Source: Escherichia coli
GTDB taxonomy: Bacteria; Pseudomonadota; Gammaproteobacteria; Enterobacterales; Enterobacteriaceae
Strand: one strand, 5' to 3'
Assembly (NCBI RefSeq): GCF_003334815.1
Contig: NZ_QOWO01000001.1
Length of the DNA stretch: 64,000 nucleotides
The translations under genes and the position numbers were made by a program. Shown here in pieces: positions 42,435 to 53,099 of this stretch. Under the pieces are notes generated by a model. It ran no database searches. It saw only the letters and a program-made list of their open reading frames with translations, and was not told where the DNA came from. Each line of letters begins with the position of its first letter. The first letter of the stretch is position 1.

Positions 42435-42442
42435 AGTAAGTC

Positions 42443-42655
42443 CTTTCGTAAAACTTTCGTTTCATTTCGTTTTGCCTATTAACGCCTTTCTATTAAGCAA
42501 ATGCAAGCCCACCTTGCCCATTGACGCAAGCTACTCTCGTTTCAGTGACTTTCATTATGTTTCTTTTGTGAATCAGATCAGAAAACTATTATCTTTCGTT
42601 TTATTTTTATTTCACCATGACGCAGTATCAACTGAAACAAAACGAAAGATTAATA
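42443..42655. promoter_or_regulatory. agaR / kbaZ divergent control region with AgaR operator-like CTTTCGTTT repeats
   Basis: Repeated tttcgttt and aaacgaaag motifs at about 42443-42476 and 42590-42655. Confidence 0.55.
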
Positions 42656-42682
42656 TCGCAGTAATCTGAACTGGAGAGGAAA

Positions 42683-43963
42683 GTGAAACATCTGACAGAA
42701 ATGGTGAGACAGCACAAAGCGGGCAAAACAAATGGAATTTATGCCGTTTGTTCCGCACATCCGCTGGTGCTGGAGGCTGCAATCCGCTACGCCAGTGCAA
42801 ACCAAACGCCGTTACTGATTGAAGCAACCTCCAATCAGGTAGACCAGTTCGGCGGTTATACCGGAATGACGCCCGCCGATTTTCGCGGCTTTGTTTGTCA
42901 GCTCGCCGACTCGTTGAATTTCCCGCAGGATGCGTTGATTCTGGGTGGTGACCATCTGGGGCCAAACCGCTGGCAAAACCTGCCGGCCGCTCAGGCAATG
43001 GCCAATGCCGATGATTTGATTAAAAGCTACGTTGCGGCAGGATTCAAAAAAATCCACCTTGATTGCAGCATGTCCTGTCAGGACGATCCGATTCCCTTAA
43101 CTGATGACATCGTGGCTGAACGCGCCGCCCGTCTGGCGAAAGTGGCGGAAGAAACCTGTCTTGAACACTTTGGCGAAGCCGATCTGGAGTATGTCATTGG
43201 TACCGAAGTGCCGGTACCTGGCGGCGCGCATGAAACCTTAAGCGAGCTGGCGGTCACCACGCCGGATGCCGCCCGCGCCACGCTGGAAGCCCATCGTCAC
43301 GCCTTTGAAAAGCAAGGTTTGAATGCCATCTGGCCACGCATCATTGCCCTGGTGGTTCAACCCGGCGTCGAATTCGATCACACCAACGTTATTGATTATC
43401 AGCCCGCCAAAGCGAGCGCCTTAAGCCAGATGGTCGAAAACTACGAAACGCTGATTTTCGAAGCGCACTCTACCGATTATCAAACGCCGCAATCGCTGCG
43501 CCAGCTGGTGATTGACCACTTTGCCATTCTGAAAGTTGGCCCAGCGCTGACCTTCGCCCTGCGTGAAGCTCTGTTCTCTCTGGCGGCGATTGAAGAAGAA
43601 CTGGTGCCAGCGAAAGCCTGTTCTGGTCTGCGTCAGGTGCTGGAAGACGTGATGCTCGACCGCCCGGAATACTGGCAAAGCCACTACCACGGTGACGGCA
43701 ACGCGCGTCGTCTGGCGCGTGGTTATAGCTACTCGGATCGCGTGCGCTATTACTGGCCGGACAGCCAGATTGATGACGCTTTCGCTCATCTGGTACGTAA
43801 TCTGGCGGATTCACCAATTCCGCTGCCGCTGATCAGCCAGTATCTGCCGCTGCAGTACGTGAAAGTTCGCTCCGGCGAGCTGCAGCCAACGCCACGGGAA
43901 CTCATTATCAACCATATTCAGGACATCCTGGCGCAGTACCACACAGCCTGTGAAGGCCAATAA
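42683..43963 (+). CDS. kbaZ: Tagatose-1,6-bisphosphate aldolase non-catalytic subunit KbaZ (426 aa, GTG start)
   Basis: GTG at 42683 preceded by a GGAGAGGA Shine-Dalgarno. Confidence 0.9.
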
Positions 43964-43985
43964 GCAAAACAAAGAGGAACACGCT

Positions 43986-50243: not shown

Positions 50244-50720
50244 ATGACCAGTCCAAATATTCTCTTAACCCGTATTGATAACCGTCTGGTTCACGGTCAG
50301 GTTGGCGTGACCTGGACATCCACCATCGGTGCAAATCTGCTGGTAGTCGTGGATGATGTTGTCGCTAACGATGATATTCAACAGAAATTAATGGGTATTA
50401 CCGCGGAAACCTACGGCTTTGGCATTCGTTTCTTTACTATCGAAAAAACCATTAACGTCATCGGCAAAGCTGCACCACATCAGAAGATCTTCCTGATTTG
50501 CCGTACGCCACAAACGGTACGTAAATTGGTAGAAGGTGGTATTGACCTGAAAGATGTCAACGTCGGCAATATGCATTTCTCGGAAGGGAAAAAGCAAATC
50601 AGCAGTAAAGTTTATGTCGATGACCAGGATCTCACGGACTTACGTTTTATTAAACAACGTGGCGTGAATGTTTTCATTCAGGACGTCCCTGGCGATCAAA
50701 AAGAACAAATCCCTGACTAA
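50244..50720 (+). CDS. agaB: PTS galactosamine-specific IIB component AgaB (158 aa)
   Basis: Paralog of AgaV (LSRIDERLIHGQVG versus LTRIDNRLVHGQVG). Confidence 0.9.
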   Translation: MTSPNILLTRIDNRLVHGQVGVTWTSTIGANLLVVVDDVVANDDIQQKLMGITAETYGFGIRFFTIEKTINVIGKAAPHQKIFLICRTPQTVRKLVEGGIDLKDVNVGNMHFSEGKKQISSKVYVDDQDLTDLRFIKQRGVNVFIQDVPGDQKEQIPD

Positions 50721-50758
50721 ATCTAAAATCGCCTTAATATTGGTTTGAGGTAATAAAA

Positions 50759-51562
50759 ATGCATGAAATAACCCTACTTCAGGGATTATCCCTGGCGGCG
50801 TTAGTTTTTGTTCTGGGGATTGATTTTTGGCTGGAAGCCTTATTTTTATTCCGCCCGATAATCGTTTGTACCCTAACTGGCGCTATTCTCGGTGATATTC
50901 AGACTGGCTTAATTACCGGTGGTCTGACAGAGTTGGCTTTCGCCGGATTAACCCCTGCAGGTGGTGTTCAGCCGCCCAACCCGATTATGGCGGGTCTGAT
51001 GACCACCGTCATTGCATGGTCTACGGGCGTTGATGCCAAAACAGCAATTGGTCTTGGCCTGCCGTTTAGTTTGTTAATGCAGTACGTCATTCTGTTCTTC
51101 TATTCCGCTTTCTCATTATTTATGACCAATGCCGATAAATGCGCGAAAGAGGCGGATACGGCAGCGTTTTCCCGGCTTAACTGGACAACGATGCTCATCG
51201 TCGCTTCAGCGTATGCGGTGATTGCTTTCCTCTGTACTTACCTGGCACAGGGGGCGATGCAGGCGCTGGTGAAAGCGATGCCCGCCTGGCTGACCCACGG
51301 CTTTGAAGTGGCTGGCGGTATTCTGCCTGCCGTTGGTTTTGGCTTGCTGCTGCGCGTAATGTTCAAAGCGCAATATATCCCTTACCTGATCGCCGGTTTC
51401 CTGTTTGTTTGCTACATCCAGGTCAGCAACCTGTTGCCGGTTGCCGTACTGGGCGCAGGCTTTGCGGTGTATGAGTTTTTCAATGCGAAATCCCGGCAGC
51501 AAGCGCAACCGCAGCCCGTTGCCAGTAAAAATGAAGAAGAGGACTACAGCAATGGGATCTGA
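50759..51562 (+). CDS. agaC: PTS galactosamine-specific IIC component AgaC (267 aa)
   Basis: Paralog of AgaW in this window. Confidence 0.9.
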   Translation: MHEITLLQGLSLAALVFVLGIDFWLEALFLFRPIIVCTLTGAILGDIQTGLITGGLTELAFAGLTPAGGVQPPNPIMAGLMTTVIAWSTGVDAKTAIGLGLPFSLLMQYVILFFYSAFSLFMTNADKCAKEADTAAFSRLNWTTMLIVASAYAVIAFLCTYLAQGAMQALVKAMPAWLTHGFEVAGGILPAVGFGLLLRVMFKAQYIPYLIAGFLFVCYIQVSNLLPVAVLGAGFAVYEFFNAKSRQQAQPQPVASKNEEEDYSNGI

Positions 51563-52343
51563 AATCAGTAAAAAAGATATCACCCGTCTGGGCTTTCGTT
51601 CGTCGCTGCTGCAAGCGAGCTTTAACTACGAAAGGATGCAGGCGGGCGGTTTTACCTGGGCGATGTTGCCGATCCTGAAAAAGATTTATAAGGACGACAA
51701 ACCGGGCTTAAGCGCGGCGATGAAAGATAACCTCGAATTTATTAATACCCACCCGAATCTGGTCGGATTCCTGATGGGGTTATTAATTTCGATGGAAGAA
51801 AAAGGAGAAAACCGCGACACCATTAAAGGCCTCAAAGTGGCACTGTTTGGCCCAATCGCCGGGATTGGCGATGCGATTTTCTGGTTTACTTTGTTGCCGA
51901 TTATGGCGGGAATTTGCTCATCATTTGCCAGCCAGGGAAACCTGCTGGGGCCGATTCTATTTTTCGCCGTTTACCTGCTTATCTTTTTCCTGCGCGTCGG
52001 CTGGACCCACGTCGGTTATTCAGTCGGCGTGAAGGCGATCGATAAAGTGCGAGAGAACTCGCAGATGATTGCCCGTTCGGCAACCATCCTCGGGATCACG
52101 GTAATCGGCGGGCTGATCGCTTCGTATGTGCATATTAACGTGGTGACATCGTTTGCCATCGACAATACCCACAGCGTTGCGCTGCAGCAGGATTTCTTCG
52201 ATAAAGTCTTCCCGAACATTTTACCGATGGCCTACACCCTGCTGATGTATTACTTCCTGCGGGTGAAAAAAGCGCATCCGGTGCTGTTAATCGGCGTGAC
52301 TTTTGTGCTCTCTATTGTTTGTTCCGCATTCGGCATTTTGTAA
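51552..52343 (+). CDS. agaD: PTS galactosamine-specific IID component AgaD (263 aa)
   Basis: Internal ATG at 51552 overlaps the agaC 3' end by 11 nt; paralog of AgaE. Confidence 0.9.
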   Translation: MGSEISKKDITRLGFRSSLLQASFNYERMQAGGFTWAMLPILKKIYKDDKPGLSAAMKDNLEFINTHPNLVGFLMGLLISMEEKGENRDTIKGLKVALFGPIAGIGDAIFWFTLLPIMAGICSSFASQGNLLGPILFFAVYLLIFFLRVGWTHVGYSVGVKAIDKVRENSQMIARSATILGITVIGGLIASYVHINVVTSFAIDNTHSVALQQDFFDKVFPNILPMAYTLLMYYFLRVKKAHPVLLIGVTFVLSIVCSAFGIL

Positions 52344-53099
52344 ATGGAACGAGGCACTGCGTCTGGTGGTGCCTCTTTACTTAAGGAATTTCATCCTGTG
52401 CAAACCCTTCAGCAAGTTGAAAACTATACGGCGTTAAGTGAACGTGCCAGCGAATATTTATTGGCCGTGATCCGTAGCAAACCGAATGCCGTGATTTGCC
52501 TGGCGACCGGAGCCACGCCATTACTGACGTATCATTATCTGGTAGAAAAAATCCACCAGCAGCAGGTTGATGTCAGCCAGCTCACCTTCGTGAAGCTCGA
52601 CGAATGGGTGGATCTGCCATTAACGATGCCAGGCACCTGCGAAACTTTCCTGCAACAGCATATCGTGCAGCCGCTGGGGCTACGTGAAGACCAGCTCATC
52701 AGCTTTCGCTCCGAAGAGATAAATGAGACAGAGTGCGAACGGGTAACGAACCTGATTGCGCGCAAAGGCGGTCTGGATTTATGCGTTCTCGGATTGGGGA
52801 AAAACGGTCATCTTGGGCTGAACGAACCGGGAGAAAGCCTGCAACCGGCCTGCCATATCAGTCAACTTGATGCCAGAACACAGCAACATGAGATGTTAAA
52901 AACCGCGGGTCGCCCCGTGACTCGTGGGATCACCTTAGGCCTGAAGGATATTCTCAATGCCCGCGAAGTTTTGTTACTGGTGACTGGCGAAGGAAAGCAG
53001 GATGCGACAGATCGTTTTCTCACGGATAAAGTCTCTACCGCTATCCCGGCTTCATTTTTATGGCTGCACAGTAACTTTATTTGTTTAATTAACACCTAA
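52344..53099 (+). CDS. agaI: Galactosamine-6-phosphate deaminase/isomerase AgaI (NagB family, 251 aa)
   Basis: ATG at 52344 immediately after the agaD stop; NagB-like sequence. Confidence 0.85.
   Translation: MERGTASGGASLLKEFHPVQTLQQVENYTALSERASEYLLAVIRSKPNAVICLATGATPLLTYHYLVEKIHQQQVDVSQLTFVKLDEWVDLPLTMPGTCETFLQQHIVQPLGLREDQLISFRSEEINETECERVTNLIARKGGLDLCVLGLGKNGHLGLNEPGESLQPACHISQLDARTQQHEMLKTAGRPVTRGITLGLKDILNAREVLLLVTGEGKQDATDRFLTDKVSTAIPASFLWLHSNFICLINT

Follow-up and report, generated by a model that had tools for sequence, protein, structure and literature searches.

The window analysed here, a 64,000-nucleotide stretch of Escherichia coli DNA (contig NZ_QOWO01000001.1 of assembly GCF_003334815.1), carries the aga/kba cluster for the use of N-acetylgalactosamine (GalNAc) and galactosamine (GalN). 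The map of open reading frames (ORFs) and the RefSeq annotation of near-identical genomes showed 13 of 13 genes in the canonical order agaR-kbaZ-agaVWEF-agaA-agaS-kbaY-agaBCD-agaI, with agaR divergent and the full cluster spanning positions 41625–53099. No internal stop was found in any of the 13 reading frames (ORF list and translations). A first-pass annotation, made from the sequence alone, had described these 13 full-length genes, and the ORF map, the translations, the RefSeq lengths, and the NCBIfam scores bore it out; the interval it assigned to them, 42435–53099, starts one base after agaR and thus holds 12 genes instead of 13. We hold with high confidence that the locus is a complete E. 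coli aga/gam (aga/kba) regulon of the E. coli C type, carried on a phylogroup-A chromosome with a haplotype nearly the same as that of K-12 prior to its deletion, and most likely conferring growth on GalNAc (Aga+) and on GalN (Gam+). The genes, with the components of the phosphotransferase systems (PTS) that they encode, their lengths in amino acids (aa), and the scores of their products against the corresponding models, are the following.

41625–42434, minus strand: agaR, DeoR-family regulon repressor, 269 aa; NF007316, 577 bits (cut-off 351), and NF040755 (AgaR), 465 bits (cut-off 260)
42683–43963, plus strand: kbaZ, non-catalytic subunit of tagatose-1,6-bisphosphate aldolase, 426 aa, GTG start; NF012002 (KbaZ), 899 bits (cut-off 707)
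43986–44459, plus strand: agaV, GalNAc PTS component IIB, 157 aa; NF008508, 320 bits (cut-off 180)
44470–45249, plus strand: agaW, GalNAc PTS component IIC, 259 aa; NF040757 (AgaW), 410 bits (cut-off 300)
45239–46117, plus strand: agaE, GalNAc PTS component IID, 292 aa; NF040760 (AgaE), 618 bits (cut-off 500)
46135–46569, plus strand: agaF, component IIA common to the GalNAc and GalN PTS, 144 aa; NF040761 (AgaF), 219 bits (cut-off 130)
46566–47699, plus strand: agaA, GalNAc-6-phosphate deacetylase, 377 aa, labelled nagA in RefSeq; TIGR00221, 290 bits (cut-off 226)
48050–49204, plus strand: agaS, GalN-6-phosphate deaminase/isomerase, 384 aa, role according to PMC3668189; TIGR02815, 635 bits (cut-off 529)
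49217–50077, plus strand: kbaY, catalytic class II tagatose-1,6-bisphosphate aldolase, 286 aa; NF009375, 664 bits (cut-off 542)
50244–50720, plus strand: agaB, GalN PTS component IIB, 158 aa; NF007288, 282 bits (cut-off 180)
50759–51562, plus strand: agaC, GalN PTS component IIC, 267 aa; NF007289, 406 bits (cut-off 300)
51552–52343, plus strand: agaD, GalN PTS component IID, 263 aa; NF007359, 457 bits (cut-off 400)
52344–53099, plus strand: agaI, NagB-like protein annotated as "GalN-6-P isomerase", 251 aa; NF007291, 471 bits (cut-off 271)

All 13 products scored above the curated NCBIfam cut-offs, 11 of them through a cluster-specific equivalog; the model passed was the nagA deacetylase equivalog in the case of AgaA and the AgaS subfamily model in that of AgaS. 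KbaY and KbaZ are paralogs of GatY and GatZ of the gat operon, and AgaVWEF and AgaBCD are members of the mannose/fructose/sorbose family of PTS; however, the window proteins exceeded the Kba/Aga-specific equivalog cut-offs and fell below those of the GatZ and ManXYZ equivalogs. KbaY also passed a broader GatY-labelled subfamily model (446 bits, cut-off 383), well under its KbaY score of 664. Gene coordinates and lengths were those of the RefSeq annotation of Z1323HEC0011, whose chromosome is 99.9% identical, and of strain ML35, and the annotated aga clusters of 5361 of 5426 complete E. coli genomes matched the region at 95–100% identity, more than 5000 of them at 98–100%. The longest-ORF starts of agaV (GTG at 43950) and agaA (ATG at 46545) lie upstream of the annotated ones. 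As for the good ribosome-binding sites first described throughout the cluster, a Shine-Dalgarno sequence was recognisable in 12 of the 13 genes, but none was found for agaI, the ATG of which directly abuts the agaD stop codon.

Comparison by BLAST with the K-12 strain MC1061 gave two collinear arms, corresponding to window positions 40500–44845 and 47141–55000 and overlapping by 10 bases in K-12, and reading of the junction showed that MC1061 lacks exactly 2305 bp, equivalent to window 44846–47150. The deletion of about 2.3 kb mentioned in the first-pass annotation, with agaE and agaF gone and agaW and agaA truncated, was thereby given its exact size, and the alignment to K-12 proposed there as a check found MC1061 without full-length agaW, agaE, agaF, or agaA. 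The segment lost in K-12 comprises agaW codons 126–259 (its 3' half), agaE and agaF in full, and codons 1–195 of agaA (its 5' half); agaW' of 125 codons and the last 182 codons of 'agaA are retained, both stumps being pseudogenes in RefSeq. The break lies between CGCTGCGACC (44836–44845) and CGCGGCGACC (47141–47150), which form a direct repeat matching at 9 of 10 positions, with an exact match over the last six bases (GCGACC), as is characteristic of illegitimate deletions mediated by microhomology. K-12 lost the 2305 bp by such an event between these short direct repeats, and the window represents the undeleted state. The Aga− Gam− phenotype of K-12 has been attributed to a 2.3-kb deletion (Hu et al. 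2013, PMC3668189), which is independently mentioned in PMC9628945. No copy of the K-12 junction, TCTCGCTGCGACC followed by TGGCAAC, was found in the window, and as the segment 44846–47150 is present, the window cannot be a plain K-12 derivative at the aga locus, in agreement with what had first been proposed for its source.

The 2305-bp segment was present in 4945 of 5426 complete E. coli genomes (91%), nearly full length in 4931, and the 80-bp K-12 junction in 370 of the same 5426, mostly laboratory K-12 derivatives, so that intactness excludes K-12 and little else. The usefulness as a strain marker that had been claimed for the locus holds as far as the exclusion of K-12 is concerned, but such a marker is weak, since the intact state is the norm and part of the cluster is missing only from K-12 and a few other strains.

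Outside the deletion, the window differed from MC1061 by only 9 single-nucleotide polymorphisms (SNPs) and one 9-bp insertion/deletion (indel) over 42 kb (window 22000–64000), which places the source very near to K-12 within phylogroup A. The flanks and the retained genes are almost identical in both, the proteins AgaR, KbaZ, AgaV, AgaS, AgaB, and AgaD being the same. Across all 64 kb, 12 SNPs and that same indel separated the window from ML35, the closest complete genome. The window amounts to the K-12 haplotype without its deletion, carried by a phylogroup-A relative. So few differences would also fit a K-12 derivative whose aga region had been restored with DNA of an Aga+ donor, through transduction or recombination, in an engineered or hybrid strain. 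However, the window lacks the K-12-specific alleles at 33063, 33136, 42587, 42775, and 57233, on either side of the cluster and as far as about 10 kb from it, and it stands no farther from natural or non-K-12 isolates, such as ML35 and strain 1303, than from K-12. In addition, an unrelated public sequencing run (L010) contains the same haplotype over 12.9 kb, and the private alleles of the window were found in several public assemblies, all of which makes a repaired K-12 very improbable. The 9-bp indel corresponds to an in-frame insertion, GGCGCACTG at 56160–56168, in the fimbrial usher gene yraJ, present in the window with respect to ML35 and MC1061 alike.

Two non-coding regions of the cluster contain operator-like repeats.

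42435–42682, no strand assigned: agaR-kbaZ divergent control region, with operator-like repeats at 42454–42473 (two overlapping), 42550–42563, 42594–42607, and 42634–42647 (minus strand)
47700–48049, no strand assigned: agaA-agaS spacer, with a repeat resembling repetitive extragenic palindromes or bacterial interspersed mosaic elements (REP/BIME-like) at 47776–47854, followed by the agaS promoter region with operator-like repeats at 47901–47914 (plus strand) and 47981–47994 (minus strand)

The motif CTTTCGTTT had five exact matches in the window against 0.75 expected, a number reached in none of 100 shuffles, and all five lie in these two spacers: at 42454, 42593, and 42640 (minus strand) between agaR and kbaZ, and at 47751 and 47987 (minus strand) between agaA and agaS. 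The core of the AgaR operator consensus, reportedly TTTCRTTTYRTTTY in Ray and Larson (2004), to which the promoter positions are also credited, had eight window matches with at most one mismatch against 0.78 expected, seven of them in the two control regions. The repeats noticed upstream of kbaZ and agaS in the first pass are thus real and above chance, and their match to this core makes them predicted AgaR operators at the agaR, kbaZ, and agaS promoters. Inverted operator-like pairs bracket the promoter-proximal DNA of both regions, one formed by 42591–42606 and 42635–42650 (94% complementary, 28 nt apart) and the other by 47901–47914 and 47981–47994 (93% complementary, 66 nt apart). AgaR, a DeoR-type protein, would bind the TTTCRTTT-rich operators at the three promoters and keep the operons kbaZ-agaVWEFA and agaS-kbaY-agaBCDI repressed as long as the amino sugars are lacking.

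The operator-like sites were invariant across K-12, O157:H7, O104:H4, EC12, and ML35, those of K-12 being the same as in the window apart from two SNPs in the spacer; for the agaR-kbaZ region, the comparison took in six strains from different lineages. The distal CTTTCGTTT at 47751 is not conserved and differed between strains, and the REP/BIME-like inverted repeat at 47776–47854 also varied, its second unit being swapped for another sequence in O104:H4 and EC12. Among the seven comparator genomes (O157:H7, O104:H4, EC12, ML35, 1303, Z1323HEC0011, and K-12), position 42587, inside a −10-like TATTAT, was C in K-12 and EC12 and T in the rest, and position 42611, four bases past the kbaZ-proximal operator core, was C in all of them and T only in the window. 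A promoter and terminator scan of 41500–53600 with a simple sigma-70 model was uninformative, as it gave fewer promoter-like sites than shuffled sequences and, where the kbaZ and agaS promoters are expected, none on the plus strand. An Rfam scan of the whole window detected rnpB only, with nothing within the aga region.

The aga/gam regulon of E. coli C was reportedly a subject of Brinkkötter and co-workers in 2000. According to its published description (PMC3668189), its 13 genes are those of the window, arranged and oriented alike, with a divergent agaR beside the same pair of operons and no K-12 deletion, and it confers an Aga+ Gam+ phenotype. O157:H7 strains of the EDL933/Sakai type match the window at 98.7% identity, with each of the 13 gene positions occupied and the agaWEFA segment uninterrupted, but differ from it by amber codons at AgaC Q8 and AgaI Q72 that go with a Gam− phenotype, agaC being shortened and agaI a pseudogene in RefSeq; O157:H7 isolates from the spinach outbreak carry AgaF G91S and are Aga−. 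These three changes are described null alleles (PMC3668189), and none of them was found in the window translations, where AgaF Gly91, AgaC Gln8, and AgaI Gln72 are all intact. Without any of the known null alleles, the source strain is predicted to grow on GalNAc and GalN and is likely to be Aga+ Gam+.

The steps of the pathway are established for the family and are proposed here by orthology and from the literature. AgaV, AgaW, and AgaE, as IIB, IIC, and IID of a mannose-family PTS, would import and phosphorylate GalNAc, whereas AgaB, AgaC, and AgaD would import GalN, with AgaF as the IIA of both transporters. AgaA would then deacetylate GalNAc-6-phosphate, a function in which NagA could substitute for it, and AgaS would deaminate and isomerise GalN-6-phosphate to tagatose-6-phosphate, from which PfkA, encoded elsewhere, would make tagatose-1,6-bisphosphate. 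Finally, KbaY with KbaZ would cleave the latter into dihydroxyacetone phosphate and glyceraldehyde-3-phosphate. The replacement of AgaA by NagA and the role of AgaS, not AgaI, as the deaminase have been described, and growth on the two sugars is reported not to require AgaI (PMC3668189).

The cluster also holds four derived changes that were absent or nearly so in the seven comparator genomes, which represent several lineages. Three of them alter proteins, namely 49734 C>G (KbaY A173G), 51130 A>T (AgaC K124N), and 53026 C>A (AgaI A228D), and the fourth is 42611 C>T, beside the kbaZ-proximal operator; AgaC K124N, AgaI A228D, and 42611 C>T are private to the lineage. Transversions make up three of the four, and every coding change is missense, an unusual spectrum for natural variation that could point to sequencing or assembly errors, with the common allele as the true one. 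However, proteins with exactly these variants are encoded in several independent public assemblies, and window 43217–56077 is matched at 100% identity over 12,861 bp by a Logan contig (SRR10357323, L010), which takes in three of the four sites. Both observations indicate that the rare changes are not errors, and sequencing noise, scarcely credible as their source, was rejected.

Several points weigh against the reading of the locus as a fully functional regulon. The Aga+ Gam+ phenotype is a prediction from orthology and literature, and the AgaR operators are predicted from the reported consensus and promoter positions. In addition, KbaY A173G, AgaC K124N, AgaI A228D, and 42611 C>T are derived and rare, and two of them affect positions with conserved or basic residues in related proteins. 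Ala173 of KbaY was conserved in five of the five class II aldolase structures aligned, including PDB 1GVF, which is identical to the window protein over 80 aligned residues (139–218) except at position 173. This residue lies in a strand, seven residues before His180, a zinc ligand. Position 124 of AgaC aligns with the basic Arg123 of the paralog AgaW. KbaY A173G could weaken the aldolase step shared by both sugars, and AgaC K124N the uptake of GalN, leaving a cluster that is structurally complete but impaired in a strain that would be Gam− or grow slowly on the two sugars. One missense or nonsense change is known to suffice for the loss of Aga or Gam use in O157:H7 (PMC3668189), and close relatives with KbaY G173 have deleted agaVWEF, consistent with relaxed selection on the pathway. 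On the other hand, Ala-to-Gly and Lys-to-Asn are mild substitutions that leave the known catalytic residues untouched, KbaY keeps its 664 bits against its equivalog model, and G173 was found in at least 24 public contigs from several distinct lineages, so the variant has persisted. Nor was the SNP density raised in the cluster, which contains 4 of the 12 SNPs with respect to ML35 in 18% of the window (binomial P = 0.15), and a clustering of SNPs there was rejected. On balance, we regard an impaired cluster as unlikely, and a functional regulon of the E. coli C type is preferred.

The relatives that share KbaY G173 showed further independent lesions of the cluster, at least three deletions and one IS3 insertion. 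A 3505-bp deletion (window 43758–47262), present in L008, L011, and L014, creates an in-frame KbaZ::AgaA fusion of 503 aa, and L009 has lost 3492 bp equivalent to about window 43219–46708. In strain AST46 (L015), about 2.1 kb comprising agaE, agaF, and the 5' part of agaA are missing, and strain 1303 (L006) carries the IS3 insertion in agaB. These alternative junctions are rare among complete genomes, with the L008 type in one and the L009 type in none. In the window lineage itself, the changes in the cluster are missense and operator-adjacent only. The block for the GalNAc PTS (agaVWEF and agaA) thus appears to be lost recurrently in K-12-like haplotypes; as a general trait of the K-12-like phylogroup-A haplotype, reaching beyond the deletion of K-12 itself, recurrent loss of agaVWEF/agaA is a doubtful proposition to which we give little probability.

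Other features of the window lie outside the cluster. The prlF-yhaV type II toxin-antitoxin pair (40771–41570) is located immediately upstream of agaR; it is absent from the B2-like strain EC12, in which garD adjoins a slightly longer agaR annotation. Further upstream, 3.5 tandem copies of a 113-bp unit (33615–34007 and, on the minus strand, 33985–34361; 96% matches) overlap the 3' end of rnpB, the RNase P RNA gene (318.6 bits in Rfam), a tandem repeat for which the E. coli rnpB locus is known.

The essentials of the intact aga/kba cluster were already published between 1996 and 2013, and nothing here is new to the literature. The locus marks its source as non-K-12 at this point, with little importance beyond annotation, and the window provides, in a nearly isogenic background, the exact sequence that preceded the K-12 deletion, together with its junction. 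The predicted Aga+ Gam+ phenotype bears on growth on mucin-derived sugars, and an intact Aga PTS is also relevant as an alternative glucose transporter (PMC9628945). Finally, if the recurrent loss of the GalNAc-PTS block were true, and selection against expression of a mannose-family PTS stood behind it instead of neutral decay, it would add a small new point on E. coli niche adaptation, the suggested cost of such transporters being that they may offer an entry route to phages or bacteriocins or may be a burden in GalNAc-poor niches.

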